This document shows, piece after piece, positions 3,014 to 35,345 of a stretch of 64,000 nt of DNA. The DNA lies in the NCBI GenBank assembly GCA_934085585.1, contig CAKOHI010000001.1, forward strand, positions 76,172 through 140,171. The letters run 5' to 3'. The translations under genes and the position numbers were made by a program. The notes below the pieces were generated by a model. The model searched no databases and had not been told where the DNA came from. It saw only the letters and a program-made list of their open reading frames with translations. Origin of the DNA: an uncultured Bacilli bacterium. GTDB lineage: Bacteria; Bacillota_I; Bacilli_A; RF39; UBA660. Positions within the stretch are counted from its first letter, which is position 1. The number at the start of each line of letters is the position of its first letter.

Positions 3014-3607
3014 AATAACGATATGTCTGTTTGGTTCTTCCCCTTCACTTTCGGTTTTTACACCTTTAAAGTCTGTTAAAGCATTATGTATTATTCTTCT
3101 TTCATATGAAGTCATATTATCAAGTGCTACAGGAATGTTTGTACTCACTACTTCTTTAGCAGTTTTTTTAGCTAATCTTTCTAATCTTTTTATATTTTTT
3201 TCTTTGTAATTTGATACATCTAGATTAAATTTATAATATATTCCCGTTGTGTTTTGAATATATTGTTTTGCTAATGTTTCTAGGGCTTTTAATGTAGCAC
3301 CTTCCTTACCTATTAAAATATAATCTTTATTTGAATACATTCTAATAGTTACACGATCATCTTTGTTACTCATTTCCATGGTTACTTCAAGTCCCATGTT
3401 TTCTACGACTTTTCTTAAAAATTCTTTAATTTCATTATTGATATCTGTTTTTAAGTATGCTGTTACTTCATAGATTGTACCTTGAAAAAGTTTTCCCTTT
3501 TTAACTGTGCTTGTATAAAGAAATTCTTCTTTTGATAAATTGTTTTCTTCCATTAATGCACTTAACGCTAGTTCAACATCTTTTCCCTCTTTAATTATCT
3601 TTTCCAT
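3002..3607 (-). CDS. khpB: RNA-binding protein Jag/KhpB (KH + R3H domains)
   Basis: Typical Jag architecture and position downstream of yidC; C-terminal R3H-like ERRIIHNALTD... motif. Confidence 0.8.
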   Translation of the reverse strand: MEKIIKEGKDVELALSALMEENNLSKEEFLYTSTVKKGKLFQGTIYEVTAYLKTDINNEIKEFLRKVVENMGLEVTMEMSNKDDRVTIRMYSNKDYILIGKEGATLKALETLAKQYIQNTTGIYYKFNLDVSNYKEKNIKRLERLAKKTAKEVVSTNIPVALDNMTSYERRIIHNALTDFKGVKTESEGEEPNRHIVIKPL

Positions 3608-4631
3608 ACTTCATACCTTCTTTCTTAACTAATTTATCTTTAATTTTATCTTTTTTATTTTTATCTTGTTTTTTATTAGTTAAGTCTTTATTATTAACTT
3701 TATTTATAATAATATTTTGAATCGCTATAAATGCGTATGTTACTATCCAGTAGAATGCTAGTGCTGTTGGTAATGTTAATGACGCATATGTAATCACTAC
3801 GAGCATAACATATAACATTATTTTCATTTGTTTTGCTGCTTCTGGAGATTGTGATCCCGCTTGAGACATTGTTTGTCTAAATGAAAAGTATGTTGATACT
3901 GCAATTAAAACTAGAAGTAATAAATATAGATAATTACCGGTTTTAATACCAACAAGTGGTGTCATACCTAAATTAAATGTTAATAATGATTCTTCATATA
4001 TTGCTGGTGTTCTATAAATTGCTTGTAAGAATGCAAAGAATAGTGGTAATTGGATAAATGCCATGAGACACCCTACCATTGGATTTACCTTATATTTTTT
4101 ATAAACCATTATTGTTTCTTGACTTTTAGCCATTAATGATTCATTATCTGTTCTATTACGATATTTTCTTTCTATTTTTTCTATTTCAGGTTGAGCTTTT
4201 TTCATATTCATTGTTTGATTTGTACTTTTAATTGTAAATGGTAATAATACTAATCTTATAGCTAAACCTATTAATATTAATGATATACCTAGATTACCTA
4301 CGAGATTACCTAAAACTAATATTAAATATGCTAAAGGTTTAACAAATAAAAATTCCCATAATCCAGTTGATTCATTTGATGTTATTTTAAAATCTTCGCA
4401 AGCTGGTAAATCTTCAAAATCAATATTTAATTGATCACTATATTCTTTATATATATTATATAGTTCACTATCTTTTTCTGGTAAACACAAAATATCTTTT
4501 TCAAGCATTTGACCTGTTTCTTCATATGTAACTATTTTTTTATCTTTATCTTGTATATATTTGCTATTTCCACATCCACTAGTAAGTAATAATACAAATA
4601 CTAATAGAATTGCCATTATCTTTTTTTTCAT
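3591..4631 (-). CDS. yidC: membrane protein insertase YidC/OxaA family (lipoprotein)
   Basis: Lipobox LLTSGC at the N-terminus and multi-TM 60-kDa inner-membrane-protein core; conserved rnpA-yidC-jag order. Confidence 0.85.
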   Translation of the reverse strand: MKKKIMAILLVFVLLLTSGCGNSKYIQDKDKKIVTYEETGQMLEKDILCLPEKDSELYNIYKEYSDQLNIDFEDLPACEDFKITSNESTGLWEFLFVKPLAYLILVLGNLVGNLGISLILIGLAIRLVLLPFTIKSTNQTMNMKKAQPEIEKIERKYRNRTDNESLMAKSQETIMVYKKYKVNPMVGCLMAFIQLPLFFAFLQAIYRTPAIYEESLLTFNLGMTPLVGIKTGNYLYLLLLVLIAVSTYFSFRQTMSQAGSQSPEAAKQMKIMLYVMLVVITYASLTLPTALAFYWIVTYAFIAIQNIIINKVNNKDLTNKKQDKNKKDKIKDKLVKKEGMKYGKDN

Positions 4632-4957
4632 GAAATTCCTTTCTTTAGTGTATTTATTAAATCTTTTTCTAAATCACTATATGAAGCATTATTTGCTTCT
4701 CTTTTAATCATTATAATATAATTATGATTATTTTTAAAGAGAAATCTATTATTATCCACAATATTTCTAAATTGTCGTTTAAATTTATTTCTAACTACGG
4801 CATTGCCTAGTTTTTTTCCAACAGCTATACCAAAGTTAGGTTTTGGATATTCTTTTTCTTTTGAAAATATAAATACGTATTTTCCTTTTATTTTTGTACC
4901 TTTATTTATAATCTCATTAAATTCTTCATGAGATTTTACCATTTCATATCTTTTCAT
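4628..4957 (-). CDS. rnpA: ribonuclease P protein component
   Basis: 109-aa basic protein with the FGIAVGKKLGNAVVRNKFKR motif; 4-bp overlap with the yidC start; lies downstream of rpmH. Confidence 0.85.
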   Translation of the reverse strand: MKRYEMVKSHEEFNEIINKGTKIKGKYVFIFSKEKEYPKPNFGIAVGKKLGNAVVRNKFKRQFRNIVDNNRFLFKNNHNYIIMIKREANNASYSDLEKDLINTLKKGIS

Positions 4958-4968
4958 AATGATTTTTT

Positions 4969-4994
4969 CTAAAAAAAACCACGTTAAAGTGGTT
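4969..4994 (-). terminator. terminator/attenuator hairpin between rpmH and rnpA
   Basis: AACCAC-GTTAAA-GTGGTT stem-loop with an 8-nt U-run on the minus strand. Confidence 0.35.
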
Positions 4995-4995
4995 T

Positions 4996-5118
4996 TTATT
5001 TACATAAAACTTTACGTCCTTTTCTACGACGATTCTTTAATATATCAGTTTCTTTACGAGCAAAAAATCCATGTTTTTTAGCTGCTTTTCTTTTATTTGG
5101 TTGATATGTTCTTTTCAT
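4996..5118 (-). CDS. rpmH: 50S ribosomal protein L34
   Basis: Not in the ORF track; minus-strand translation gives [40 protein letters not shown] (40 aa) with a GGAGA RBS. Confidence 0.9.
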
Positions 5119-5217
5119 AATACAATTTCTCCTTTTCTTTAATAGCGTTATTATTATAATATTAAAGATGGGAATAAGTCAAGAAAAATCGTGTTTTGAT
5201 TATTGTTATGTGTCAAA

Positions 5218-5883
5218 TTATTTGTTTTTTAAATAATAATCTTGATGAAGTTGATGAGTAAAGGTTATTCCTGGCATAGTTCTTACTAGTTTTTGTTCTT
5301 TTCTAATAATTCTTAAATTTCTATTTATTTCTTTTGTATTTGTTACTGGACTCATACTTTCAAATGGAATTTTTTCTAAAGAAAGTTCTTGAAGTAATAA
5401 TGTATGTAATTTATGAGACATAGCACTTTTTTCTAAAAATTCATCTTTTATTTTTTGTGAAACATTACCATCGCATGATAGATAAATGTCATTTATAATA
5501 GAAATATTTTTATATTCATTAAAATTGTATAAAATTCTAATTAATCTACACAATATGTATTCATCACTACATGGTGGTTTTACTAATCCTTGCATCTCAT
5601 ATGAATCATTATTTGAAAATTCATCAAAACTAATAAATTTTGTAGTGTTTAAATTTGTTAATAATCTATCTATAATATGGTATATATTGTATAGAGCTAT
5701 TTGATAATAAAGATCATTTTCTATAAGTGATTCTCTTTCTTTTATACTTATATAATCTTTTGTAACTGCAAATTCAAGTTCTATAAGTGAATTTAAATAA
5801 TCGAATAATTCAGTTGTAAAATTATTTTTATTTGCTAATAATATTTGTTTTAATTCTTCTTTTCTTTCTAAAATATTTGCCAT
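5218..5883 (-). CDS. hypothetical protein (about 221 aa), first gene of a two-gene insertion between rpmH and oriC
   Basis: Long ORF; likely start is ATG at 5883 (MANILERK) with a GAAGGGAAG RBS, while the ORF-track start is an upstream TTG; no recognisable motif. Confidence 0.5.
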   Translation of the reverse strand: MANILERKEELKQILLANKNNFTTELFDYLNSLIELEFAVTKDYISIKERESLIENDLYYQIALYNIYHIIDRLLTNLNTTKFISFDEFSNNDSYEMQGLVKPPCSDEYILCRLIRILYNFNEYKNISIINDIYLSCDGNVSQKIKDEFLEKSAMSHKLHTLLLQELSLEKIPFESMSPVTNTKEINRNLRIIRKEQKLVRTMPGITFTHQLHQDYYLKNK

Positions 5884-5940
5884 ACCAAAACTTCCCTTCA
5901 AATTAATAGATATTTTATCATAATTTTTATAATTATGCCA

Positions 5941-6759
5941 CTATTTTAGGAAGGTTATATATAAATGTATAAATGTAAATTTATAATAATTCGTTTTAAG
6001 ACTTTTATTGTAGTCATACATTTTAGAAAATTTAGTGTTATACTCTATTCCATCTTTTAACATATATAGTATTATGTTTACCCATTCAGGATTTTCTTTA
6101 TAATAATTACTTTTTATATAATAGTCTTTTACTTCATTATAATCATATTCTAAAATAATTTGATCATATATTATTAATTCATCAGAAATGGAAATTATTC
6201 CAAACGTAGAAACTTTTCCTTTACCCACGAATAAATTTACTGCTCCGGAGTTTACAAATAACCTATTTTTGTAATTTGCTTCAAAACATCTGTGAGTGTG
6301 AGCAAATAGATAAATATCTGCATCGTAATTATCAATCAATTTATCAAATTTTTCATACGATGTTTTAGTTATTATATCCCTACTTTTATATGGACTTCCA
6401 TGAGATAGACATATTCTTTTATTAGCTATTTCAATAATTTTTGATGTTGGTAAGTTGTTTAAAAATTCTAAATTTTCTTTCGGTAAATTTTGATAAGTAT
6501 AATAAAATGAATAAAATTTTTCGGTTATTTCATTACTAGATGATGAAAGTTTTAATAATGATTCTTCTCTATTACCTAAGATTATTTCTGAATCTAGACT
6601 TTTTAGTGTATCTATTATTTTGTTATCGTCTGGACCATCCGTCAAAAAATCACCACAGATTAAAAATTTGGATATGTTTTTATCCTTTAAATAATCTAAA
6701 GCTTTATTAAGTAAAAATAAATTACCATGAATATCATTTAAAACTGCTATTTTCTCCAT
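5941..6759 (-). CDS. calcineurin-like metallophosphoesterase (YfcE/MJ0936-type phosphodiesterase) with a C-terminal extension
   Basis: Phosphoesterase motifs DIHGN, GDxxxxGP, GNRE, SHGSP and AHTHR. Confidence 0.75.
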   Translation of the reverse strand: MEKIAVLNDIHGNLFLLNKALDYLKDKNISKFLICGDFLTDGPDDNKIIDTLKSLDSEIILGNREESLLKLSSSSNEITEKFYSFYYTYQNLPKENLEFLNNLPTSKIIEIANKRICLSHGSPYKSRDIITKTSYEKFDKLIDNYDADIYLFAHTHRCFEANYKNRLFVNSGAVNLFVGKGKVSTFGIISISDELIIYDQIILEYDYNEVKDYYIKSNYYKENPEWVNIILYMLKDGIEYNTKFSKMYDYNKSLKTNYYKFTFIHLYITFLK

Positions 6760-6789
6760 TTTACATCTTTATTATTATATCATACTTTT

Positions 6790-7090
6790 TTGTTAATAAC
6801 TAGCCATTTTTGTGGATTGTGGATAATTTGTGGATAAGTATTAAAAATAATCCACATAATTAACAACATTTTATCAAAATTGGGTTTGTGAATAGTTTGG
6901 GGATAAGTATTAAGTGTATAATTTTTTGTTGATAGTGTTGATAACTTGTTTAAATAGGCATAAATATGGCTTTTTTTGTGTTGATAATTTTGGGGATTAA
7001 AAAAAAGTTATCAAAATTGCAAATTTAGTCTTTTTTTTTTTGGGAAAATAGAGTAAAATTTTAGTTAGGAAATTTAGTTAGCGGGGTGAG
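6790..7090. promoter_or_regulatory. oriC upstream segment: DnaA-box cluster plus AT-rich unwinding element
   Basis: Perfect TGTGGATAA boxes at 6818-6826 and 6829-6837; near-consensus TAATCCACA at 6848-6856 and TGGGGATAA at 6898-6906; TGTTGATAA variants at 6936-6944 and 6979-6987; A/T tracts at 7000-7050 directly upstream of dnaA. Confidence 0.7.
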
Positions 7091-7093
7091 GTT

Positions 7094-8437
7094 TTGAAAA
7101 CTGATGAGCTTTTTTTACGTTTTTTAAATGACATTCAGACACAAGTAAGTGAAACAGCATATACAATATGGTTTTCAAAATTAGAACTCTTGTCGATTGT
7201 CAACAATGTAGTAACAATAAAAGTACCAATGGAAGTACATAAACAAATGCTCGGTGAAACCTATAAAGATATTATAGATAATGCCTTTTTTGCAATGACT
7301 GGGATTAATTATACATTTAAATTTATTACTGAAGATGAAGTAGAAAACTTTATTCAACCAGTTGTACCAGAAGAAGTAATGGAAAAAGAAATAGAATGGA
7401 CTACAAATTTAAATCCTAAATTTACTTTTGATAATTATGTTGTAGGAAATTCAAATAGATTAGCATTCGTTGCTGCTAGAGCTGTTGCAGAAGCACCTGG
7501 AACAATACATAATCCATTATTTATTTATGGACGTAGTGGAATAGGGAAAACCCATTTAATGCAAGCAATTGGTAATTATATTAAGGATCATTCTAAACTT
7601 AAAGTATTATATACAACAAGTAATGAGTTTAGAGATGAATTTACTGGTATTGCCACAAGTAGTAATAAGATGGGATATGCTAATGATTTTAAAGATAAAT
7701 ATCGAAATGTTGATGTGTTAATAATTGATGATATACAGTTTTTAGTAGAAGCAGAAAAAACCCAACAAGAGTTCTTTCATACATTTAATGCACTTCATCA
7801 AGCCAATAAACAAATTATTATAAGTAGTGATAAGAGTCCAGATGACCTAAAAAAAATAGAAGAAAGATTAAGAAGTAGATTTATGTGGGGATTACCCGTA
7901 GATATTTATCCACCAGATTTTAATCTTCGATGTGATATAATAAGGTCGAAGGTAAAAAATACTAGTATTGAAGATAAATTAAATGATGATGTAATAGAAT
8001 ATATTGCAAATTCGTGTGTTAATGATGTTAGGCACATCGAAGGAACTATAAACAGGTTGCTAGCTTACACGGCAATGATGGTTCCTGATAAAATTACTTT
8101 GGATTTTGCTAATGAAGCTCTTAATGATTATGTTAATACTAACATATTTATCAACAATTCGATTGGCTCAATTCAAAATGCTGTGGCGGAATACTTTAAA
8201 ATATCGGTTGATGATTTAAAAAGTAAGCGAAGAACTAATACAGTAGTTAAACCAAGGCATATAGCAATGTACTTATGTAGGGTTGAAACAGATGAAAATT
8301 TACAGAAAATAGGGTTAGAATTCGGGGGTAGAGATCATTCTACAGTATCTACAGCATGTGATAAGATAAAAGAAGAGTTAGAAACAAATCCAAATTTAAA
8401 TAACATGCTAAAAGAAATAAAATCAAAGTTACAATAA
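7094..8437 (+). CDS. dnaA: chromosomal replication initiator protein DnaA
   Basis: AAA+ Walker A GIGKTHL and Walker B LIIDDIQF motifs; C-terminal DnaA-box-binding signature; TTG start with a GGGGTGAGG RBS. Confidence 0.95.
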   Translation: MKTDELFLRFLNDIQTQVSETAYTIWFSKLELLSIVNNVVTIKVPMEVHKQMLGETYKDIIDNAFFAMTGINYTFKFITEDEVENFIQPVVPEEVMEKEIEWTTNLNPKFTFDNYVVGNSNRLAFVAARAVAEAPGTIHNPLFIYGRSGIGKTHLMQAIGNYIKDHSKLKVLYTTSNEFRDEFTGIATSSNKMGYANDFKDKYRNVDVLIIDDIQFLVEAEKTQQEFFHTFNALHQANKQIIISSDKSPDDLKKIEERLRSRFMWGLPVDIYPPDFNLRCDIIRSKVKNTSIEDKLNDDVIEYIANSCVNDVRHIEGTINRLLAYTAMMVPDKITLDFANEALNDYVNTNIFINNSIGSIQNAVAEYFKISVDDLKSKRRTNTVVKPRHIAMYLCRVETDENLQKIGLEFGGRDHSTVSTACDKIKEELETNPNLNNMLKEIKSKLQ

Positions 8438-8565
8438 TGTTGATAAGTTGGGTATAAATTTGATATATTTTAGAAGAAAAAATAAGGTATTTTAAAAGTT
8501 ATCCACGTTATTAACGCTATTAATAAATATAATAATATAAACTTAAAAGAAAGAAGGAATAAAAA
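8438..8565. promoter_or_regulatory. dnaA-dnaN spacer carrying DnaA boxes (second oriC segment)
   Basis: TGTTGATAA at 8440-8448 and TTATCCACG at 8501-8509 in an AT-rich spacer, as in bipartite Firmicute origins. Confidence 0.5.
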
Positions 8566-9684
8566 ATGAAATGGACAATTGAAAAAAATGTTATTTTAGA
8601 AGCATTAAATAATGTTACTAAAGCTTTAAGTCAAAGAACAACTATTCCAGTATTAAATGGTATTGTTTTTGATGTAAATGAAAATGGTATGGAATTACTT
8701 GCAAGTGATTCAGAATTAACAATTAAAGTATTAATTCCTCATGAAAATATTAAAATGCTTGAAGGAAAAGGAAGAGTTATTATTCAAAGTAAATACTTTG
8801 TTGATATGATTAGAAAAATGCCTAGTGATGTAATTGATTTTGAAGTTGAAGATAATTTAAAAATAAAAATTAGTACACCTAATAATCAATATAGATTAAA
8901 TTGTTATAATCCAAGTGATTATCCAAATATTGGGTTAGATAAAAGTGGAGATGTAATTAATGTATCTTCTGAAAAGTTAAGAGAACTTATAAATCAAACT
9001 TCATATGCGTTGTCAACTCAAGAAGTAAGACCACTTCTTACAGGTATTAACTTTAAAATAAATGGAGATATTTTAGAATGTATTTGTACAGATTCTTATA
9101 GATTATCAAAGAAAAATATTAAATTAGATACACCATGTGGAAAACAAGTTAATATTGTTATACCTGGTAGAAGTATTACAGAACTTGAAAAAATACTTGT
9201 AGATGATGAAATAGTTGAAATATATGTATTTACTAATAAAATATTATTTGTATATAAAAATATCTTTATTCAAAGTAATTTGTTAAGTGGAACATATCCA
9301 GAAACTAGTCATTTTATACCAAATGATTTTGCTTATATGATTAATTTAAATATGAAAGAATTTTATGATGCTGTTGATAGAGCTTCATTGCTTGCTCAAA
9401 ATAAAGATAAGAATATTATAAAAATGCACATTCAAGATAAGGATATGGTTATTACATCAACGAGTAATGAATTAGGAAATGCTGAAGAAAAATTACATAT
9501 TGATTGTAATAATAAAGAAAAAATTGAAATATCTTTTTCTAGTAAGTTTATGATGGATGCCTTAAAGGTTATAAAGGAAGAAAATATCTTGTTACTTCTT
9601 AATACAGATGATAAACCAATATTAATAAAACCAGTGGTAGATGAAACATTAACAGAGTTGATTTTACCTATAAAAACATACTAA
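8566..9684 (+). CDS. dnaN: DNA polymerase III beta sliding clamp
   Basis: 372-aa protein of typical three-domain clamp length beginning MKWTIEKNVILEAL; conserved position after dnaA. Confidence 0.95.
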   Translation: MKWTIEKNVILEALNNVTKALSQRTTIPVLNGIVFDVNENGMELLASDSELTIKVLIPHENIKMLEGKGRVIIQSKYFVDMIRKMPSDVIDFEVEDNLKIKISTPNNQYRLNCYNPSDYPNIGLDKSGDVINVSSEKLRELINQTSYALSTQEVRPLLTGINFKINGDILECICTDSYRLSKKNIKLDTPCGKQVNIVIPGRSITELEKILVDDEIVEIYVFTNKILFVYKNIFIQSNLLSGTYPETSHFIPNDFAYMINLNMKEFYDAVDRASLLAQNKDKNIIKMHIQDKDMVITSTSNELGNAEEKLHIDCNNKEKIEISFSSKFMMDALKVIKEENILLLLNTDDKPILIKPVVDETLTELILPIKTY

Positions 9685-9698
9685 TTTTAAGAAAAATT

Positions 9699-9727
9699 GA
9701 ACAAATTGAACTTTGTTCTTTTTTTTC
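9699..9727 (+). terminator. rho-independent terminator after dnaN
   Basis: GAACAAA-TTGAAC-TTTGTTC hairpin followed by T9. Confidence 0.45.
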
Positions 9728-9782
9728 GACAAATTTTTTAAAAACTTTGTGATATTATAGCCCATTAAGAAAGGAGGATATT

Positions 9783-10211
9783 ATGTTTAGAATTAGTAAT
9801 AATACCCTTTTTATAGAGTTTAATGGCTATGAAACAGTAGTTAAAGAAATTGATACTGATTATAATTTTGCGGGTAATTTAATTAATTCAATTTTAAATA
9901 TGAGTTGTATATATTATGGAAGTTCTTTAAAAGGAAGGATAAAGGGTAGTAAAAGTATTTTAGGTGGAAGTTATAAATTACCAATTATGATTAGTGAAAA
10001 AAATAATATTATATTCTTTCCCATTAAAGATCAAAAGAATTATACTTGGATTAATTTTAATAATGTAAAAAGTTTTGAAAAGATGGATAGTGGTATAAAT
10101 GTGGTATTTAAAAACGAATTAAAGAAGTTTTTTAATGTAAGTTCTACGATATTTAATAATCAATTATTAAAATCTAGTAGATTGTGGTTAGTTTATTTAA
10201 CAAGAGGGTAA
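9783..10211 (+). CDS. comK: ComK-family competence transcription factor homologue (compact, 142 aa)
   Basis: By-eye alignment to B. subtilis ComK: CIYYGSSLKGRIKGS...YKLPIMISEKNNIIFFP...YTWINFNNVKSFE...RLWLVYL matches CRFFGSSYAGRKAGT...HKPPIMVDPSNQIFLFP...CGWISHVHVKEFK...TAWLRTKF. Confidence 0.55.
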   Translation: MFRISNNTLFIEFNGYETVVKEIDTDYNFAGNLINSILNMSCIYYGSSLKGRIKGSKSILGGSYKLPIMISEKNNIIFFPIKDQKNYTWINFNNVKSFEKMDSGINVVFKNELKKFFNVSSTIFNNQLLKSSRLWLVYLTRG

Positions 10212-10324
10212 ATTTTTGTAAATTTTTCTTTTATTAGGGCATTTTTTATGGTATAATTATTATGTGTATAGGTATACCAAAATGCCTTAAATTTTTATTA
10301 TAGGGCAACAGAGGGGGTTATTTA

Positions 10325-11413
10325 ATGAAATTAGATAGTTTATCACTAATGAATTTTAGAAATTATGAATCATTAAATATCTCATTTGGAAATTTAAACA
10401 TTATATATGGGTTAAATGGAAGTGGTAAAACTAACATAATTGAAGCTATATATATGCTTGCACTAACTAAATCATTTAGAATAAATAATGAAAAAGTATT
10501 GATTAAGAAAGGAAAAATTAAAAGTAAAATTAAGGGAAATGTTTTTAAAAAAAATGATGAAAATGAGTTTGGAGTAGAAATTAGTAATGAAGGGAAAATA
10601 GTTACAATTAATGGGGAAAAACAAGATAAAATAAGTGATTATGTATCAAGAATAAATGTTATTTTGTTTAATCCGAGTGATACGAGATTAATAGATGATG
10701 CTCCTTGTGAAAGAAGAAAAATGCTTAATATTGAAATAAGTCAAATATATAAAGAGTATTTAATTATTTTGGCTAATTATCAGAAAATTTTAAAACAGCG
10801 TAATTTTTACTTAAGAGGTATGTATGTTAATGGTAATTATACTAGTACATATTTGGATATTCTTACTAAAAAGTTGATTGAATATGGGAAAAGTATTTGT
10901 AAGTATAGAGAAAATTTTATAGAAAATATAAATAAGTATATTACAAGTAATTATGAGAAAATATTTGGTAGTGGAACTTTAAAAATAAGATATGTATCAA
11001 CATTTAAAAATAAAGATGAAGATGCTTTGTTTAAAAGATATCAAGAAAATTATCAAAAAGAACTTGGGATTGGTAAGACTTTAGAGGGAATTCATCATGA
11101 TGATATTGTATTTGTTTTAGATAATAATAATTTAAAAGAATGGGGAAGTGAAGGGCAAAGAAAGAATGCTATTATTTCCTTTAAGTTAGCGGAAATTAAT
11201 GTTATTAATGATATAAAGGGTTACTATCCAATACTTATTTTAGATGATTTGTTTAGTGAGTTAGATAAGGAAAAGATTACTAATTTGTTGGGGATGCTTG
11301 ATAGAGATATTCAGACATTTATTACAACTACGGATATTAAAAATGTTAGTAAAAAAGTAATCAATGATGCTAAAAAATTTAAAGTAATTAATGGTATATT
11401 AGAGGAGGAGTAA
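10325..11413 (+). CDS. recF: DNA replication and repair protein RecF
   Basis: Walker A GLNGSGKTN near the N-terminus; SMC-like signature and Walker B ILILDD toward the C-terminus. Confidence 0.9.
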   Translation: MKLDSLSLMNFRNYESLNISFGNLNIIYGLNGSGKTNIIEAIYMLALTKSFRINNEKVLIKKGKIKSKIKGNVFKKNDENEFGVEISNEGKIVTINGEKQDKISDYVSRINVILFNPSDTRLIDDAPCERRKMLNIEISQIYKEYLIILANYQKILKQRNFYLRGMYVNGNYTSTYLDILTKKLIEYGKSICKYRENFIENINKYITSNYEKIFGSGTLKIRYVSTFKNKDEDALFKRYQENYQKELGIGKTLEGIHHDDIVFVLDNNNLKEWGSEGQRKNAIISFKLAEINVINDIKGYYPILILDDLFSELDKEKITNLLGMLDRDIQTFITTTDIKNVSKKVINDAKKFKVINGILEEE

Positions 11414-11416
11414 AAA

Positions 11417-13339
11417 ATGAAAGAAACACATTATACTGATAGTGATATACAGGTTTTGGAAGGACTTGAAGCAGTTAGAAAAAGACCTGGTATGTATATA
11501 GGATCAACTGGTGAGCGAGGTTTACATCATTTAGTTTGGGAAATTGTGGATAATGCAGTTGATGAAGCTTTAGCTGGTTTTTGTGATGATATTGAGGTTA
11601 TGATTAATAAAGGCGATATTATTGAAATAAGAGATGATGGTAGAGGTATACCAACAGGTATTAATGCTAAAACTGGGTTATCAACAGTTGAAACAATATT
11701 TACTGTACTTCATGCTGGTGGTAAATTTGGTGGTGAAGGTTATAAAGTTTCTGGGGGACTTCATGGTGTTGGGGCTAGTGTTGTTAATGCTTTGTCTAAA
11801 TGGCTTGAAGTTAAGATTTATCGTGATGGGAATGTATACTATCAAAGATTTGAAAATGGTGGACATCCAGTTGAACCATTAAAAATTATTGATACTTGTG
11901 ATATTGAAAGAACAGGTAGTACGGTTAGATTTAAACCTGATGAAGAAATATTTACGGAAACAACTGTATATAACTATGATACTTTATATAAAAGATTACA
12001 AGAAATTGCATTTTTAAATAAGGGATTAAGAATTAATTTATATGATTTAAGAGAAACAGTAGAAAAACATGATACTTTCCTTTATAATGGAGGGATTATT
12101 GAATACGTTGAAATGCTTAATAAGAGTAAGACTCCGATTCATGATGATATAATTTATATGGATGGTTCTGAAAATGGTATTGAAGTTGAAGTTGCTTGTC
12201 AATATAATGAAACTTATTCACCAAGTATTTATTCATTTACTAATAATATTAATACTTATGAGGGCGGTACTCATGAAGATGGAGTTAAAGCTGCCTTAAC
12301 TAAAGTTATCAATAGTTATGCTAAAAATGCAAAGATTTTAAAAGAAAATGATGCTGCTTTAATTGGGGAAGATTGTCGCGAAGGTTTAACAATGATTATT
12401 TCTTGTAAGCATCCAGATCCTCAATTTGAAGGACAAACTAAGACTAAGTTAGGTAATAGTGAAGTTAGAAAAATAGCAAGTGATGTATTTTCACAAGGTT
12501 TCGAAAGATTTTTAATGGAAAATCCTAATGAAGCTAGAACTATTGTGGAAAAATGTATTAGTGCTTCACGTGGTAGAATTGCAGCTAAAAAAGCAAGAGA
12601 AGCAACAAGAAGAAAAAGTGATTTAGATATAGTTAACTTTGGTGGAAAACTAGTTGATTGTAAGGAAAAAGATCCAAGTGTTTGTGAAATATTTTTAGTC
12701 GAAGGGGATAGTGCAGGTGGTTCTGCAATTAAGGGAAGAAATAGTATGACACAAGCTATACTTCCTTTGAAAGGTAAAGTATTAAATGTTGAAAAAGCAA
12801 GACTTGATAGAGCTTTAAGTAATGATGAGATTAAAACAATTATTACGGCTTTTGGTACTGGAATTGGACAAGAATTTGATTTAAGTAAAATGAGATATCA
12901 TAAAGTTATTATCATGAGTGATGCCGATGTCGATGGTTCTCATATTAGAGTACTTCTTTTAACATTATTTTATCGTTTCTTTAAACCAATTGTAGAAGCA
13001 GGTTATGTTTATGCTGCTCAACCACCTTTATATTGTATTAAACATGGACAAACTATTAAATATGTTTTAAATGATGATGAAAGAGATGAATATATCAAAA
13101 CATTAAATGAAAAAAATGTTAGATATGATATAGCAAGAATGAAAGGTTTAGGGGAAATGGATGCTGAAGAATTAAATGAAACCACTATGGATATAGATCA
13201 TAGAATTCTTCGTAAAATAACTGTTGATGATGCTATTAGTGCTGATGCAGCATTTAGTAAATTAATGGGTGAAGAAGTTGAACCTAGACGTAAGTTTATT
13301 GAAGAAAATGCAACTTATGCAAAGAATTTGGATTTTTAG
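11417..13339 (+). CDS. gyrB: DNA gyrase subunit B
   Basis: GHKL ATPase motifs ([24 protein letters not shown]), the TOPRIM motif EGDSAGG and the conserved gyrB tail. Confidence 0.95.
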
Positions 13340-13348
13340 GAGGTTAAT

Positions 13349-15859
13349 ATGGATCATAGTAGAGATAGATTACAAGAAAATAATATTGTAAGTGAAATTG
13401 AATCATCTTTTATTGAATATTCAATGAGCGTTATTATTTCCAGAGCTTTACCAGATTTAAGGGATGGTTTAAAGCCAGTTCATAGAAGAATTATTTATGA
13501 TATGTTGGAAAATGGTTTAACACCAGATAAAAAGCATCGTAAGAGTGCGACGATAGTTGGGGATGTTATGGGGAAATATCATCCACATGGAGACTCATCA
13601 ATATATGATGCTATGGTAAGAATGGCACAAGACTTTAATTATCGTTATTTACTTGTTGATGGACACGGTAACTTTGGTAATATTGAATATCCTAGAGCAG
13701 CTGCTTATCGTTATACTGAAAGTAAGTTAGCAAAGATATCAATGGAACTTTTAAGAGATATCAACAAAAATACGGTTAATTTTGTACCAAATTATGATGA
13801 ATCAACTGAAGAACCTGAAGTTTTACCTTCAAGATTTCCAAATATTTTAGTTAATGGAACAATGGGGATTGCTGTAGGTATGGCAACAAATATTCCTCCA
13901 CATAATTTAGGTGAAGTTATTGATGGATGTATTGCTTATATAGATAATCCTGAAATTACGACAGAAGAATTAATGCAACATATTAAGGGTCCAGATTTTC
14001 CAACTGGTGGTATTATTCTAGGTAATTCTGGGATAAAGAAAGCTTATGAAACTGGTAGAGGATCAATAACTATTAGAAGTAAAGCAACAATTGAAGAAAA
14101 GAATGGTAGACATTACATTGTTATTGAAGAAGTACCTTATGGAGTTAATACTCTAGATTTAAAACAAAAAGTTGCGGATTTAGTACATAATAAAATACTT
14201 GAAGGTATTACTGATTATCATACTGATTTAAAAGATGGTATTAAGATTACTATAACACTTAAAAAAGATGCTAATCCTCAAGTAGTATTAAATAATTTAT
14301 ATAAACATACGGCTTTTCAAACAACTTTTGGTATTATCTTCTTAATGCTTGATAAACAAACACCTAGAACTTTAGGTTTAAAAGATATTATTAGTAAATA
14401 TGTAGATTATCAACAAGAAGTTATTATTAGAAGAACTCAATTTGAATTAGATAAAGCTGAAAAGAGAGTACATATCTTAGAAGGTTACCAAATTGTATTT
14501 GATAATTTAGATGAAGTTATTAAGATTATTAAAGAATCTAAAGCTGATGGTGAAGCAAAAGCTAAATTAATGGAACGTTTTGGATTAACTGAAGCTCAAA
14601 CTGATAATATTCTAGAAATGAAATTACGTCGTTTAACGGGTCTAGAACGTGAAAAGATTGAAGAAGAATTAAATGCTTTAAGAATTGAAATAGAACGCTT
14701 ACGTGGCATTTTAGCGGATAATAATAAGGTATTAGGTATTATTAAAGACGAAATGACTGAGATTAAGAATAAATATGGTGATGAAAGACGTACAAAAATT
14801 GATATGACTGCGGTTGATTATATTGAAGATGAATCATTAATTCCAGAAGAAAATATCTTGGTAGTACTTACTAACAAAGGTTATATTAAGAGAACTACAT
14901 CTGATACATTTAAGTCACAAAATCGTGGTGGCGTTGGAATCAAGGGAATGACTACGAATGATGAAGACTTTGTTGAACACATGATTAACTTATCAACACA
15001 TGATTATATTTTATTCTTTACTGATAAAGGTAAAGTCTATAGATTAAAAGGTTATGAAATTCCTGAATTCTCACGTCAATCAAAAGGAATTCCAATTGTT
15101 AACTTACTTCAAGTAGAAAAAGATGAAAGAGTTAATGCTGTTATCCAAATAAATCGTGAAGAAGAATGTAAATACTTATTATTTGCTACTGAAGGCGGAG
15201 TTGTTAAGAAAACATTAATTAGTGAATTTGCTAATATTAGAAATAGTGGTAAGATTTGTATCTCATTAAGAGATAATGATAAATTGATTGATGTTAAAAA
15301 AACAACTGGTAATGATTTAGTTCTTTTAGGTAGTGATAATGGAAGAATGGTTAAGTTTAATGAAGAAGAAATCAGAGTAATGGGACGTACAGCTTCAGGT
15401 GTTCGTGGTATTTCATTAGATGGAAGTAAGTGTATTTGTTCTGAAATTGTTAAAGAGGATGATACTATATTGCTTGTTACTGAAAAAGGTTTTGGTAAAC
15501 AAACAAAGGTAAGTGAATATCGTCAAACAAGAAGAGGTTCTAAAGGCGTTAAAGCTATGAATATTACGGAAAAGAACGGAAATCTTGTTAGTGTTAAAAT
15601 AGTTTATGAAAATAAAGAACTTGTTTTAATGACTAATTCAGGTATGACCATGAGAATGCCACTTGATCAAATATCATTATTAGGTCGTGTAACTCAAGGA
15701 TTAAGACTTATTAATTTAAAAGATAATCAAAAGGTTTCTACGATAAGTTTAGTAGATAAAGAAGAAAATGAACCTGAAAATACTACTGAACAAAGTGAAA
15801 ATGTTGCTAATGAAAATATGGAAACAGCGGATAGTATACAAAATAATGAGACTGAATAA
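13349..15859 (+). CDS. gyrA: DNA gyrase subunit A
   Basis: Active-site region AAYRYTE, a quinolone-resistance-determining region, and the C-terminal beta-pinwheel repeats. Confidence 0.95.
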
Positions 15860-15983
15860 GTCTTTTTATTTTTGAATTTATAGTATATACAATGTGTATA
15901 CTTAATAAATTTAATTTTTTGATAATATTTATAATCACTAATAAATATTATTGTAAGTATATTATATAGAATTATATATTTAT

Positions 15984-16759
15984 TGTTTCACGTGGAACAT
16001 AATGTTAGTAATAATTTTGTAATTTTTATATTTTAGTTATTATAAAATAATTTTATAATTAATTAAATTTTTTTAATTTAAAAATAATTTATATGTTTCA
16101 CGTGAAACATAGTGTTGATAACTTGTGAAATATTTATAATTTTTAATTTATTTATTTTTTTGATTATTATTAATAACAATGATGGATATGATGTTTCACG
16201 TGAAACATCATGTTGATAATTTGTTATTTTATATTAATAATTGTATGTTTTTTGATAATTATTAATTATTATTGATTATTATTTTGAAATGTTTCACGTG
16301 AAACATTGTTGATAAGTAGTTGATATTAATTAATTGGATTTTTTTAATATGATTGATTATAATTTTGCTTCATATACGTTTCACGTGGAACATAATGTTT
16401 ATAGTTTGTTTTTAAAAGTAATAGATTTTATCTTTAAATAATTTGGATTTGTCTATTTTTATTTATATTTACTATGTTCCACGTGAAACATAGTGTTAAT
16501 AATTTGTTAATTACTAGCATATTATAATAAACTAATACTCCTTTATTACAATTTTATAGGTAAATTAAGTGATGTTTCACGTGAAACATCATGTTGATAA
16601 AAAGTTTATTAATTTTAAATAGATCACGCAAATAAATTATATTGTTATCTAATAGCTATGTTCCACGTGAAACATTGTTAATAAATTGTTTATAAAATGA
16701 AGTCAATTTTATTAAGTTTGTTAATATGAAATTTATAAGTATATGTTTCACGTGGAACA
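15984..16759. repeat. tandem array of nine parS (ParB/Spo0J-binding) palindromes, each adjacent to a DnaA-box-like 9-mer
   Basis: 16-mers at 15984-15999, 16093-16108, 16192-16207, 16290-16305, 16377-16392, 16475-16490, 16573-16588, 16659-16674 and 16744-16759; all match TGTTNCACGTGAAACA or its reverse complement; the site at 16475-16490 is the exact B. subtilis consensus TGTTCCACGTGAAACA; the site at 16377-16392 has C in place of T at position 1; spacing 84-118 bp. Confidence 0.8.
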
Positions 16760-16984
16760 TTATATTTATAGAAGCTAGTATAATAAAGTGCCAAACAAAT
16801 GTTTGAAATAGATAAAAGCTATCTTGGGAAATGTTTGGTTGACATAATATTTTTATGAGTATTTAAAAAAATAGGAAATATTTAAAAATTATATTTTGGT
16901 TTTTGTAAGGTTAAATAAGGGATTTATGAAGATTTTGTTAATAGAAAAAATTAATATAATTTAATATTTGATTTTTATTAAAAT

Positions 16985-16998
16985 TATTTCCCGGGAAA
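16985..16998. promoter_or_regulatory. Noc-binding-site-like palindrome ATTTCCCGGGAAAT
   Basis: Perfect 14-bp palindrome identical to the B. subtilis NBS consensus; it extends to an 18-bp palindrome TTATTTCCCGGGAAATAA at 16983-17000. Confidence 0.5.
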
Positions 16999-17104
16999 TA
17001 ATTAGTTAACATAATATTTTTGTCGTTTTATGTGTTTTTGGTGATATTTATTGAGATTTTAGGTTACTTTGCTAAATTTAAAAATGAGTTATTAACAAAT
17101 AATC

Positions 17105-17133
17105 TTGACAGTTATTATATTATTTGGTAAGAT
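17105..17133 (+). promoter_or_regulatory. sigma-A-type promoter for ffs
   Basis: TTGACA, a 17-bp spacer, then TAAGAT; a transcription start around 17140 matches the SRP RNA 5' end. Confidence 0.6.
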
Positions 17134-17139
17134 GTAAAC

Positions 17140-17218
17140 GTGCAACAAATATGCTGTAAATTGGTCAGGATTGGAAAATAGCAGCCACATCAGCCTATGT
17201 TTGTGTGCACTTTTTTTT
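17140..17218 (+). ncRNA. ffs: signal recognition particle RNA (4.5S/small SRP RNA)
   Basis: Domain IV motif GGTCAGGATTGGAAAATAGCAGCC (compare E. coli GGUCAGGUCCGGAAGGAAGCAGCC); terminal helix GUGCAACAAAUAUGCUG paired with CAGCCUAUGUUUGUGUGCAC; U-run; consensus promoter upstream. Confidence 0.75.
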
Positions 17219-17228
17219 GGAGGAAATT

Positions 17229-26515: not shown

Positions 26516-27028
26516 TTGAAACAAACTGGTGTAACAAGAAAGATAGATGAACTTGGAAGAATAGTTATTCCAAAAGAAATTAGAAAGAATTTAGGTATTA
26601 GAGATGGAGAAACTTTAGAGATATTTACTAGTGAAGATAGTATTATATTAAAGAAATATTTTGAGGTTAGAAAGTATGAAGATTTAAGTAATAAGTTATG
26701 TGAACTTATTAAGAATATTTATAACATTGATTTAGTTATAACTGATAGAGAAAAGGTAATTACCTCATCAAATAAAGAAATTGTAGAAAACTCTAAACTT
26801 AATAACAAACTTTTAGAACTTATTGATAATAGAGAAATGTTTATAACTAAAGAGTTGTTAACAATAAATTTAGGTATTGATATAAGTGGATATTTTACCG
26901 TAATTCCAATTATTGCATCAAGTGATTCTTTGGGACTTGTTATTTTAATTAGTGAGACAAGAATTGATTATAGTTCTTTAGGAAAGTTACTAGCAAAGAT
27001 AATTGCTGATAAAATTGATATATTTTAA
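26516..27028 (+). CDS. spoVT: AbrB/SpoVT-family transition-state regulator (SpoVT-like, 170 aa)
   Basis: SpoVT/AbrB swapped-hairpin N-terminus (TGVTRKIDELGRIVIPKEIRKNLGIRDGETLEIF) plus a GAF-like C-terminus; location after mfd as in Bacillus; TTG start. Confidence 0.7.
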   Translation: MKQTGVTRKIDELGRIVIPKEIRKNLGIRDGETLEIFTSEDSIILKKYFEVRKYEDLSNKLCELIKNIYNIDLVITDREKVITSSNKEIVENSKLNNKLLELIDNREMFITKELLTINLGIDISGYFTVIPIIASSDSLGLVILISETRIDYSSLGKLLAKIIADKIDIF

Positions 27029-27064: not shown

Positions 27065-27265
27065 AGTTTAACAAAGAAGGAAAGAGTAGGTATCATTCGT
27101 TTCATAGAGATTTCTTGGTTGGTGGAAAAGAAAAAATGAAGATATACGAACATGGCTCTGGAGTTAAAATCGGGTAATTACGTTATAAATTTTAAGTTGC
27201 ATGATAAATCATGAATTAAGGTGGTACCGCGGGTTATACTCGTCCTTAGTTTGTGATTTTTTTTT
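27065..27265 (+). promoter_or_regulatory. T-box riboswitch leader (probable Met specifier) controlling dut-metG
   Basis: Conserved T-box sequence AATTAAGGTGGTACCGCGG at 27214-27232, an upstream AGAGTA GA-motif region, and terminator-like pairing ending in a U9 run at 27257-27265. Confidence 0.6.
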
Positions 27266-27275
27266 GGAGGTAAAT

Positions 27276-27773
27276 ATGAGAAAGTTTGAAAAAATAAGTT
27301 ATCCTGAATTTGTTAAAGTTTTTGGAGATAATAAAACTTTGTATGATGATTATATGCTCCCTTTAAGAGGGACAAAGTGTAGTGCAGGTTATGATTTTTT
27401 TGCTATAAAAGATTATGTTATAAAACCAAATGAAATTTTAAAAATACCAACTGGTTATAAAGCTACATTTGAAAGTGATGAAATGCTAATGCTTGTTGTA
27501 AGAAGTAGTATGGGTTTCAAATATAATGTTAGACTTACAAATCAAGTGGGAATAATTGAAAGTGATTATTATAATAATCCTGATAATGAAGGGCATATGT
27601 GGATTTGTCTTCAAAATCATGGAGATAAAGAATATATAATTAATAAGGGAGATGCTTATGCTCAAGGGATATTTGTTAAATTTTTAACAACAGATGATGA
27701 TTGTGTTAATAAAACAAGAATTGGTGGGCTAGGCAGTACAAATAAAAAGAAAGAAGGAAATGAAAATGAATAA
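27276..27773 (+). CDS. dut: dUTP diphosphatase (YncF-type dUTPase family)
   Basis: dUTPase motifs SAGYDF, VVRSSMG, GIIESDY and the C-terminal RIGGLGSTN; GGAGG RBS; the ORF-track start lies upstream inside the leader. Confidence 0.7.
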   Translation: MRKFEKISYPEFVKVFGDNKTLYDDYMLPLRGTKCSAGYDFFAIKDYVIKPNEILKIPTGYKATFESDEMLMLVVRSSMGFKYNVRLTNQVGIIESDYYNNPDNEGHMWICLQNHGDKEYIINKGDAYAQGIFVKFLTTDDDCVNKTRIGGLGSTNKKKEGNENE

Positions 27774-29298
27774 AAAATATTATATTACTACACCAATATA
27801 TTATCCAAGTGCGGATTTTCATATTGGACATTGTTATACAACAATTATTGCAGATGCTATTGCAAGATATAAAAGATTAAATGGCTATGATGTGTTTTTC
27901 CAAACAGGAACTGATGAACATGGAGCAAAAATTGAACAAAAGGCTAAAGATGCTGGTGTAACACCAAAAGAATATGTTGATGTTATAATTGAAAATGCTA
28001 AAAATTTATGGAAAAGTTTAAATATTTCATATGATTATTTTATTAGAACAACTGATGAATCACATGTTAAGGCTGTGCAAGCAATATTTAAAAAATTATA
28101 TGATAAAGGAGATATTTATAAAGGTTCTTATGAAGGTTTATATTGTGTTCCGTGTGAATCATTTTGGACTGAAACTCAACTTGTGGATGGAAAATGTCCA
28201 GATTGTGGTCGTGAAGTTAAAACAGTTACTGAAGAAGCTTACTTTTTTAGATTATCAAAATACCAAGACAAATTAATTGAATTATATGATAAGAATCCTG
28301 AATTTATTTTACCAGTTTCAAGAAAAAATGAACTTGTAAATAATTTCATTAAACCAGGACTTGAAGATTTATGCGTATCAAGAACTTCAGTTAAATGGGG
28401 AATTCCTGTAGATTTTGACCCTAAACACGTGATTTATGTTTGGATTGATGCTTTATCAAACTATATTACTTCTTTAGGTTATCCAGATGAAAATGCCCCA
28501 TTATTTAAAAAATATTGGCCAGCAGACTTACATTTAGTTGGTAAAGAAATTACAAGATTCCATGCAATTATTTGGCCTGCACTTTTAATGGCTTTAGGAA
28601 TTGAAATACCTCACCAAGTGTTTGGACATGGATGGTTAATTATTAATGGTGGTAAAATCTCTAAATCATTAGGTAATTATAAAGACCCTCGAGAATATAT
28701 AGAAGCTTATGGTGTTGATGCAGTTAGATATTTTGCATTAAGAGAGGTATCTTTTGGTAGTGATGGTAATTTCTCTGAAGAAGCTTTAATTAATAGAACA
28801 AATACAGATTTAGTAAATAATTTAGGAAACTTGATTAATAGAACTATAAGCATGAGTCATAAATACTTTGATGGAGTGGTAGAAAATCCAAAAGTAAATG
28901 AAGATATTGATACTGACTTAATTAGTGCTGTTACAAGTTTAAAATCTAAAGTTGATGAAAAAATGGATGGTTTAAAAGTAAATGAAGCTTTAGAAGAAAT
29001 ATTTGAAGTATTAAAAAGATGTAATAAATATATTGATGAAACTACACCATGGATTCTTGCTAAAGATGATGCAAAACATGACAGATTAAAAACGGTTTTA
29101 TATAATATTTTAGAAAGTATTAGAGTTTGTGCAATACTTCTTGAGCCATTTATTAATGTAACAAGTGAAAAAATATTAGATGAACTTAATACAAAGGAAA
29201 GAAGCATTGAAAGTATAAATGAATTTGGTAATTTAGAATGTGGAATTACTTTAAATAAACCAGAAATCTTATTTAATAGGATTGAGATAAATGAATAA
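27760..29298 (+). CDS. metG: methionine--tRNA ligase
   Basis: HIGH motif (DFHIGHCYT), KMSKS (KISKSLGN) and a CPDC zinc knuckle. Confidence 0.9.
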   Translation: MKMNKKYYITTPIYYPSADFHIGHCYTTIIADAIARYKRLNGYDVFFQTGTDEHGAKIEQKAKDAGVTPKEYVDVIIENAKNLWKSLNISYDYFIRTTDESHVKAVQAIFKKLYDKGDIYKGSYEGLYCVPCESFWTETQLVDGKCPDCGREVKTVTEEAYFFRLSKYQDKLIELYDKNPEFILPVSRKNELVNNFIKPGLEDLCVSRTSVKWGIPVDFDPKHVIYVWIDALSNYITSLGYPDENAPLFKKYWPADLHLVGKEITRFHAIIWPALLMALGIEIPHQVFGHGWLIINGGKISKSLGNYKDPREYIEAYGVDAVRYFALREVSFGSDGNFSEEALINRTNTDLVNNLGNLINRTISMSHKYFDGVVENPKVNEDIDTDLISAVTSLKSKVDEKMDGLKVNEALEEIFEVLKRCNKYIDETTPWILAKDDAKHDRLKTVLYNILESIRVCAILLEPFINVTSEKILDELNTKERSIESINEFGNLECGITLNKPEILFNRIEINE

Positions 29299-33317: not shown

Positions 33318-33359
33318 TATAGGAATTTTTTTTTGTAATTTTCATAAAATTTATTGGTG

Positions 33360-34145
33360 ATGAATATTTTGAATATAGAAAAGGGAGATTATGTAACTAG
33401 AAATAGTTATGATAATGATACGGTTTTTAAAGTAATAAATATTAAAAACGGCATTGTATATTTAAAGGGTGTGGAAGTAAGACTTATAGCTGATGCTGAT
33501 ATTACGGATTTAAGAAAAGAAGAAGATATTGTGTCTGATGATGTCATAGATGATATTGATTTACTTGATGATAATTTAGAGCGGGGAGAGTTTTTTTATT
33601 TGCCTGCGAAAGCTTTACATATTGATTCTGATGAAGAGTATTTGGCGAGATGTTTAAAGTTTTATAAAAGAAATGGCATTATGGCTGTGGGTAAAAAAAT
33701 AAATGAAAAAAATGTTTATGAACAGTTGCCAACGCTATTAAAAGAATTTAAACCTGATATTGTGGTAATAACTGGACATGATGCTTATTACAAGAAAAAG
33801 GGAGATATTAAAGATATAAAGAATTATAAAAATTCAGCATATTTTGTTAAAGCTGTGAAAGCTGCTAGAAATTATGAAAAAAGTCATGAAAAATTGGTTA
33901 TAATTGCTGGGGCTTGTCAAAGTGATTATGAAGATTTAATTAAAGCTGGAGCAAATTTTGCTTCAAGTCCCAAGAGAGTAAATATACATGCTTTGGATCC
34001 AGCTATTATTGCTAGTACAGTTGCTTTGACAGAACGCAATAAAGAAATAGATTTAAAGAAATTACTCGAAAAAACTAAATATAAAGAAGAGGGTATGGGG
34101 GGGCTTATTTGTAATGGACTTATGTATGTTGGGTATCCAAGATAA
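33360..34145 (+). CDS. yabG: sporulation-specific protease YabG
   Basis: N-terminus GDYVTRNSYDNDTVFKVI...VRLIADADITDL aligns with B. subtilis YabG GDMVARKSYQMDVLFRII...VRLIADSDFSDL; ksgA-yabG-veg order. Confidence 0.75.
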   Translation: MNILNIEKGDYVTRNSYDNDTVFKVINIKNGIVYLKGVEVRLIADADITDLRKEEDIVSDDVIDDIDLLDDNLERGEFFYLPAKALHIDSDEEYLARCLKFYKRNGIMAVGKKINEKNVYEQLPTLLKEFKPDIVVITGHDAYYKKKGDIKDIKNYKNSAYFVKAVKAARNYEKSHEKLVIIAGACQSDYEDLIKAGANFASSPKRVNIHALDPAIIASTVALTERNKEIDLKKLLEKTKYKEEGMGGLICNGLMYVGYPR

Positions 34146-35302: not shown

Positions 35303-35345
35303 AATAAAATATCTACTTTTTTCATATTATTTAATGGTGATATTT

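Follow-up and report, generated by a model that had tools for sequence, protein, structure and literature searches.

A tail-less ComK-family protein encoded between dnaN and recF in uncultured RF39 Bacilli, with predicted Spo0A boxes at its promoter

ComK of Bacillus subtilis is the textbook case of a bistable competence switch, whose behaviour (degradation by MecA/ClpCP, relief by ComS and transcription activation) depends on the C-terminal tail of the protein. According to one study (PMC3128618, citing Susanna 2006), the last approximately 25 residues of this tail are dispensable for DNA binding and needed for the activation of comG, and a second one (PMC8138137, citing Prepiak and Dubnau 2007) places the MecA/ClpCP recognition sequence FMLYPK... 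in the same tail. On the level of transcription, Spo0A~P directly occupies five sites in the B. subtilis comK promoter (PMC3297582). Here, we describe a ComK-like gene at positions 9783..10211 (+ strand) of a 64,000-nucleotide stretch (hereafter the window) of the contig CAKOHI010000001.1, positions 76,172 to 140,171, from an uncultured Bacilli bacterium of the order RF39, family UBA660. The encoded protein of 142 residues lacks the tail of B. subtilis ComK. With a probability of roughly 0.6, the gene encodes a functional minimal ("core-only") ComK-type DNA-binding regulator which is gated by Spo0A. It represents an RF39-wide variant and not a broken gene.

The open reading frame (ORF) starts with ATG, the given positions including the stop codon, and its assignment is based on the ORF list and on the Pfam family PF06338 (ComK). 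A ribosome-binding site, AAGGAGG (9771..9777, +), was read directly 5 nucleotides (nt) before the ATG and is kept in the relatives. PF06338 was the single Pfam match of the protein, with 81.1 bits against a cutoff of 22.3 and an E-value of 9.5e-23, whereby residues 20-135 were aligned to profile positions 25-144 of 152. All homologues collected carried a precomputed PF06338 annotation as well, and an S4 domain was not detected in the protein by Pfam. Based on these profile matches, the 142-residue protein almost certainly belongs to the ComK family. The protein shares the hallmarks of B. subtilis ComK (SCxYYGSSxxGR, KxP, FFP, W, NQ and RL) as well as the predicted core fold, and shows the motif strings YYGSSLKGRIKGS, KLPIMI, IIFFP, WINFNNVKSF and SRLWLVYL. 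In an alignment of the window protein with B. subtilis ComK and two Bacillaceae ComKs of 186 and 178 residues (read from genome loci), the positions S41, C42, G46, S47, S48, G51, R52, P67, W89 and L134 were invariant. Most of the hallmark columns were also retained by other short forms.

Compared to B. subtilis ComK, the window protein is approximately 50 residues shorter, and the alignment showed an N-terminus reduced by about 10 residues, an internal gap of 3-4 residues and 35 C-terminal residues without a counterpart. Compared to the ComK of Peribacillus (locus L037), approximately 25 C-terminal residues are absent, and the window protein ends directly after the last conserved (C-terminal) helix. 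This short architecture is not restricted to the window. A search of 5.8 billion proteins resulted in 53 close relatives of mostly 141-145 residues, one of them annotated as "comK family protein" of Firmicutes bacterium CAG:460, and the lengths of the homologues overall were about 140-160 residues. When 1.84 billion cluster representatives were searched exhaustively with a profile, 1606 family members were obtained at E-values up to 1e-3. Among the best 148 representatives at 50% identity, 123 comprised 130-165 residues and nine comprised 185-205 residues. In a neighbour-joining tree, five long forms (190-196 residues) clustered together and apart from the short forms. The ratio of nonsynonymous to synonymous substitution rates (dN/dS) in 14 pairs of orthologues ranged from 0 to 0.39, with values of 0.18-0.35 in three comparisons with the window gene and mostly lower values elsewhere, and therefore the comK-like gene is under purifying selection. 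Nonetheless, it evolves faster than its neighbours, since in the closest genomes an identity of 66-71% was found, compared to 87-99% for DnaA, DnaN, RecF, GyrB and GyrA. Altogether, the short-form ComK is a distinct and widespread subfamily of uncultured, genome-reduced Bacilli of the order RF39 and relatives, and the window protein is probably a functional regulator.

A first-pass annotation of the window, made from the sequence alone, had described the gene product as a truncated ComK-family regulator. The similarity to the ComK core is borne out by the profile match, and the structure prediction suggested there yielded a compact and confident model (see below). The motifs quoted in support (FFGSSYAGRKAG, KPPIMV...) pointed to the right homology, but the strings come from B. 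subtilis ComK and not from the window protein. The description as truncated holds for the size difference to Bacillus ComK. It does not hold if damage to the gene or a recent shortening is meant, given the short architecture in more than 100 sequence clusters and the purifying selection. A shortening at both ends was likewise found, with sizes of about 10 and 25-35 residues in place of the 15 and 40 residues given there.

The absence of the tail has consequences for any comparison with the Bacillus systems. The window protein has neither the degron nor the activation region of B. subtilis ComK. A motif of the FMLYPK type ([FILMV][FILMV]LYP[KR]) was present in none of 270 collected family proteins, long forms included. 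Since it was not found in the long forms either, the motif search alone cannot split short from long forms. Without the tail, the short form cannot be subject to the proteolytic switch of ComS, MecA and ClpCP as it is known. Since the activation tail is absent as well, the protein may be a repressor or modulator, or may activate by a different contact. If B. subtilis ComK is taken as a guide, any transcription activation by the short form must use a different surface. A precedent for tail-less ComKs that behave differently is given by the naturally C-terminally shortened ComK2 (BC5250) of B. cereus. However, only 22 residues are missing from ComK2, which exists as a paralogue beside a full-length ComK1, whereas the window protein falls into a separate, deep clade in which the genomic position of the gene is fixed.

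A structure predicted with AlphaFold2 from an alignment of 19 sequences was compact and without dangling segments, with a predicted local distance difference test score (pLDDT) of 92.2 and a predicted template modelling score (pTM) of 0.86. Besides nine beta strands and two short helices, the model contains a long C-terminal helix (residues 121-141) that caps the fold. A Foldseek comparison with the PDB showed LytTR DNA-binding domains for all of the top 12 matches, including AgrA, ComE and a regulator of B. cereus (3d6w). These matches were weak but consistent, with probabilities of 0.99-1.0, E-values of 4e-3 to 5e-2, root-mean-square deviations of 4.6-7 A and template modelling scores (TM-scores) of up to 0.57 when normalised to the target and 0.38-0.45 when normalised to the query; for the top LytTR matches overall, the E-values extended to 8e-2 and the target-normalised TM-scores ranged from 0.27 to 0.57. 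They agree with a preprint of 2026, in which the AlphaFold model of ComK was likened to AgrA-LytTR, RemA and SwrD (PMC13232269). A relation on the sequence level was not observed, as the LytTR profile (PF04397) did not match the protein, Pfam reporting ComK alone at E-values up to 10, and a family-profile search of the PDB sequences revealed no solved relative. LytTR domains are DNA-binding folds rich in beta strands, and one of the matched proteins, ComE, is also a competence regulator. In contrast to LytTR proteins, which bind 9-bp direct repeats, the window protein comprises no receiver domain, and the TM-scores are modest. Among solved structures, the predicted beta-rich core fold thus has its closest, although weak, matches in LytTR DNA-binding domains, which indirectly supports the predicted DNA binding.

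The genomic position of the gene was compared by a synteny scan with one genome per species (GTDB), which yielded 39 loci. The order dnaA-dnaN-comK-recF-gyrB-gyrA was found in all 37 non-Bacillaceae loci, with identities of DnaA to that of the window from 94% down to 46%. The two loci without this synteny, from Peribacillus and Metabacillus, belong to true Bacillaceae and encode long ComKs. Six further distant short-form clusters with 33-41% identity to the window protein showed the identical gene order (6/6), resulting in a total of 43 of 43 loci. The relatives are metagenome-assembled genomes labelled as uncultured Bacilli, uncultured Tenericutes, Firmicutes bacterium CAG:460, Candidatus Onthocola and, in a few cases, uncultured Muribaculaceae. 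The housekeeping proteins of the window are 87-98% identical to their counterparts in CAG:460 (L004), and the genus CAG-460 has been placed in the order RF39, family UBA660 (PMC13155120). The comK-like gene always directly follows dnaN, the invariable upstream neighbour (8566..9684, + in the window; its counterparts in the related loci are annotated with Pfam DNA_pol3_beta). A few lineages carry one or two additional genes between comK and recF (L012 at 3545-4102, L015 at 6474-7025, L032 at 6476-7036, L014 at 6473-7273 and L047 at 4799-6257). These insertions comprise a conserved ORF of approximately 185 residues, an ORF of 266 residues and, in L047, a transposase-like gene with HTH_38. The S4-domain gene yaaA is not among these insertions. 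The comK gene of B. subtilis is presumably not located between dnaN and recF beside the origin of replication (oriC), unlike the short-form gene.

The spacer between dnaN and the comK-like gene contains the elements on which the predicted Spo0A control is based. Directly after dnaN, a terminator-like hairpin, GAACAAA/TTTGTTC followed by T8 (9699..9726, +), was found with a folding energy of -6 kcal/mol (z -1.9) and an equivalent in the relatives; the hairpin is weak, AT-rich and was not called by the terminator scanner. It is followed by a predicted Spo0A box, TTCGACA (9725..9731, +), which as reverse complement of TGTCGAA represents a perfect match and is the only occurrence of this heptamer on both strands of the 64 kb. 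The core TGTCGAA is recognised by Spo0A in Bacillus and Clostridioides (PMC3485338). The box is located 21 nt upstream of the hexamer of an extended -10 element, TGaTATTAT (9750..9758, +), which belongs to a promoter that was inferred and not mapped, with TGnTATTAT or TGnTAAAAT at the same place in the relatives. A canonical -35 is not present at this promoter, and the Spo0A box stands in its place. Hairpin, box, extended -10 and the 21-nt spacing were all conserved in the relatives. The motif class [TA][TA]CGAC[ATC] reached a density of 10.2 copies per kb in the dnaN-comK spacers of the 43 related loci, compared to 0.49 per kb elsewhere in these loci, which is a 21-fold difference, and all but one of the spacer copies showed the same orientation.

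Tandem 0A boxes bound by Spo0A lie 3 bp apart, which results in a period of 10 bp, and Spo0A-activated sigma-A promoters such as spoIIG contain an over-long spacer between a -35-like element and the -10. Both features can be recognised at the short-form genes. Three head-to-tail boxes with a 10-bp period were found in several deep lineages, for example L034 (TTCGACAAAA TTCGACATAT TTCGACACAA), L046 and L045, and degenerate triple arrays in L018, L021, L033, L043 and L047. Like spoIIG-type promoters, these promoters combine perfect head-to-tail boxes, the 10-bp period, the over-long 21-nt spacing and the extended -10, with the difference that the comK-like promoter is deduced from sequence alone. 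In addition, the window encodes the sporulation proteins SpoVT, a YabG peptidase (297 bits), SpoVG, YabP, a weak YabQ and GerQ (103 bits) at 26516-27028, 33354-34145, 34447-34722, 35286-35932 and, on the minus strand, 48796-49158, in agreement with the prediction of RF39 as spore formers (PMC10868615). Because of the conserved and phased 0A boxes, the precedent of the directly Spo0A~P-bound comK promoter of B. subtilis and the sporulation genes in the window, control of the short comK by Spo0A appears somewhat better than an even bet. A generic promoter and terminator scan was uninformative in this AT-rich DNA (26 sites compared to 27 expected, no terminators). No perfect 0A boxes or K-boxes were found in the 350 nt upstream of the assigned comK starts (which may be off) of the two Bacillaceae loci L037 and L038, so that no useful comparison resulted.

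These data also bear on what had been stated before about the location of the gene. The placement between dnaN and recF is confirmed by both neighbours (8566-9684 and 10325-11413). Regarding a replacement of yaaA, the slot is indeed the one that yaaA (rlbA) occupies in B. subtilis. An S4-domain gene is absent from the dnaN-recF slot, and an inspection of the small ORFs of the window by eye (not by profile search) showed none. YaaA is an unrelated protein with an S4 RNA-binding fold in contrast to the ComK fold. Nothing suggests a functional equivalence. An embedding in the core replication operon is contradicted by the terminator-like hairpin and T-run of dnaN preceding the gene and by the separate conserved promoters of the comK-like gene and of recF. 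Finally, the placement is not an unusual single case, since dnaN-comK-recF is the rule for the subfamily.

The second of these promoters precedes recF (10325..11413, +), which is the downstream neighbour and the first gene of recF-gyrB-gyrA. It extends over 10249..10277 (+) and comprises an extended -10, TGgTATAAT (10249-10257), and a conserved element, GTATAGGTATAC (10266-10277), at about +1. In 27 aligned lineages, the columns of TGnTATAAT and GTATAGGnnTA were invariant. The element, GTATAGG(T/A)(A/G)TA(C), begins approximately 8 nt after the -10, was detected in nearly all lineages down to a DnaA identity of about 46% and is essentially unique to the recF promoter position in each locus. 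Where genes are inserted after comK (L012, L014, L015, L032 and L047), the element travels with recF. No convincing terminator between comK and recF was found in the window. The element might serve as an operator, as a supercoiling-sensitive start region or as a stabiliser of the mRNA 5' end. Several other interpretations were tried and rejected. A leaderless mini-ORF (MCIGIP...) loses frame or start in L006, L007 and L025-type lineages with the nucleotides still conserved (by eye). The invariant part GTATAGG does not correspond to the DnaA box TGTGNAWAA, and as a regulon motif the element showed no enrichment elsewhere in the window or the loci. As an RNA, it gave sub-threshold Rfam noise, a hairpin of 4 bp without covariation in RNAalifold and a single-sequence fold that did not exceed shuffled sequences (z -1.0).

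Based on these observations, the following mechanism is proposed. The short comK would be transcribed on its own from the extended -10 promoter, which comprises a Spo0A box and no -35. Since the box takes the place of the -35, the amount of the ComK-like protein would probably be set transcriptionally by Spo0A~P, at stationary phase or at the entry into sporulation. This input would stand in for the proteolytic switch of MecA/ClpCP and ComS, the recognition tail of which is missing. The protein would then bind DNA, probably as a ComK-like oligomer, and regulate a set of genes, with genes of DNA uptake and recombination as the targets expected by homology; a role as repressor or modulator, or an activation through a different contact, would be compatible with this scheme. 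A competence regulon under the short ComK can be regarded as a tentative default by homology, to which we assign somewhat less than even odds; for the competence or pilus regulon hinted at in the first-pass annotation, the data of the window speak neither in favour nor against. More speculative, and rather doubtful at present, is the idea that the short ComK ties DNA transactions to the onset of sporulation or of stationary phase without the MecA/ClpCP/ComS switch. These transactions could be a competence-like programme of uptake and recombination, or the control of recF-gyrBA or of replication.

Several points weigh against the proposed function as a Spo0A-gated core-only regulator. The LytTR similarity is weak (E-value about 1e-2, TM-score about 0.4-0.57), and NCBIfam contains no model that matches the 142-residue protein at E-values up to 10. 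Regarding the ComK-box-like motifs, a search for which was proposed in the first-pass annotation, B. subtilis-type K-boxes, i.e. pairs of AAAA-N5-TTTT with spacers of 8 or 18 bp and up to one mismatch, were not found in the 64 kb (the type with a 31-bp spacer was not searched), and the half-sites were not enriched, with 31 found compared to 35 expected. However, this test has low power because the genome has a GC content of 26%, and a distant ComK may also have a different specificity. The window contains neither the comG, comE and comF operons nor dprA, and no target gene of the ComK-like protein was found in it. The fixed position beside very conserved genes may reflect historical inertia and not a functional link. 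As for the promoter, Spo0A control is motif-based, the spo0A gene lying outside the window. In a few lineages, TTCGACA is replaced by TTGACA, which could be a plain -35 (L008, 18-nt spacer), and the boxes could in principle be sites of another factor or even of the ComK-like protein.

Among the other explanations, the closest one by homology is that of a master activator of natural competence, which like B. subtilis ComK would switch on a DNA-uptake pilus and the comE and comF genes, including the pilin-like gene at 56628. This gene (56628-58643) encodes a protein of 671 residues with a type IV prepilin-like N-terminus (KGFSLTELIAVLVIL; PF07963, 22.3 bits compared to a cutoff of 21.2) and a large Cys-rich C-terminal part without Pfam match; the gene follows rplM-rpsI in isolation, no genes for pilus assembly being located close by. 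The membership in the ComK family, the prepilin methylation motif in the window and the direct control of B. subtilis comK by Spo0A~P (PMC3297582) are all in line with such an activator. On the other hand, the C-terminal region that B. subtilis ComK requires for comG activation (PMC3128618) is absent, K-boxes are missing from the window and from the region upstream of the pilin-like gene, this gene is isolated and no late-competence operon was found in the 64 kb. Furthermore, full-text literature searches found no paper that links RF39 with ComK or competence. A master activator therefore appears possible but somewhat unlikely. The missing tail could also be explained by a repressor or competitive modulator similar to ComK2 of B. 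cereus, which would occupy ComK-type sites without activating. According to PMC3128618, ComK2, which is 22 C-terminal residues short, lowers comG expression, and B. subtilis ComK without its 25 C-terminal residues binds DNA and does not activate; the window protein misses even more of the tail. However, ComK2 coexists with a full-length ComK1, whereas a long ComK paralogue was not seen in the window or the related loci, and the short forms make up a deep clade of their own and do not represent recent truncations. Thus, a modulator of the ComK2 type is considered unlikely.

A role in the immediate neighbourhood of the gene is less probable still. The protein might act on recF-gyrB-gyrA via GTATAGGnnTA or, in functional analogy to the Spo0A-induced control of replication, on oriC and replication when sporulation sets in. 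The position between dnaN and recF, which is invariant over deep divergence, the invariant extended -10 and site-unique +1 element of the recF promoter, the lack of a convincing comK-recF terminator in the window and the DnaA-box clusters and parS array within a few kb would fit this role. Nevertheless, these points amount to no more than guilt by association, the +1 element remains attached to recF where genes intervene and is unlike known ComK sites, and the gene order at oriC is conserved in Firmicutes generally, which makes a local chromosome role quite improbable. A decaying, truncated pseudogene of a once full-length comK, finally, is effectively refuted. The shorter length compared to Bacillus ComK and the faster evolution could be explained by decay. 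In contrast, length and reading frame have been retained across more than 100 clusters, the dN/dS values lie well below 1, ribosome-binding site and promoter are conserved and the fold is compact and confidently predicted, so that a decaying remnant can practically be ruled out. Altogether, the core-only ComK-type regulator under Spo0A control remains the preferred explanation.

The surroundings of the gene comprise the replication origin. Clusters of DnaA boxes were found at 6818-6987, upstream of dnaA (7094-8437), and at 8438-8507, between dnaA and dnaN. Three boxes were perfect (TTATCCACA), two of them in the cluster at 6818-6987, and boxes with up to one mismatch were enriched in the window (47 compared to 27 expected). 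The two clusters identify the region as a bipartite oriC. Further downstream, gyrB (11417-13339) starts 4 nt after the stop of recF, and therefore no yaaB/remB is located between recF and gyrB; gyrA follows at 13349-15859. Within the subsequent non-coding stretch of 1.27 kb (15860-17130), nine parS-like palindromes (TGTTNCACGTGNAACA, TGTT(T/C)CACGTG(A/G)AACA) were detected at 15984-16759, with 0 expected and mostly 98 bp apart. Many of them are followed by TGTTGATAA, which reads as a DnaA-box-like TTATCAACA on the minus strand. In 24 related loci, 1-5 such sites also follow gyrA, as far as the loci reach. The palindrome matches the parS consensus of B. subtilis, and the array looks like a dense, conserved parS array beside oriC. 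Apart from the origin, a small signal recognition particle (SRP) RNA is located at 17134-17219, upstream of a tadA-like gene and dnaX, and a T-box leader at 27065-27250, upstream of the genes at 27201-29298 including a metG-like tRNA synthetase. A protein of 557 residues (61892-63565) combines Schlafen/AlbA_2 with HATPase_c_4, which is typical of putative DNA-binding or defence-associated proteins.

Concerning its meaning, the finding indicates a large, previously undescribed subfamily of tail-less ComKs, the gene of which is adjacent to the origin and carries canonical Spo0A boxes. For the clade, the order dnaN-comK-recF provides a simple genomic marker. Moreover, the capabilities of a bare ComK domain and a ComK-type regulation without proteolysis become testable, as does the question whether the abundant uncultured RF39 Bacilli of the gut tie DNA uptake or repair to sporulation. 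If the protein were merely a generic regulator, the result would be a modest refinement of the annotation. If the coupling of sporulation or stationary-phase entry to DNA transactions were true, the short form would represent a different and perhaps ancestral layout of the ComK switch, found in a major uncultured lineage of the gut.

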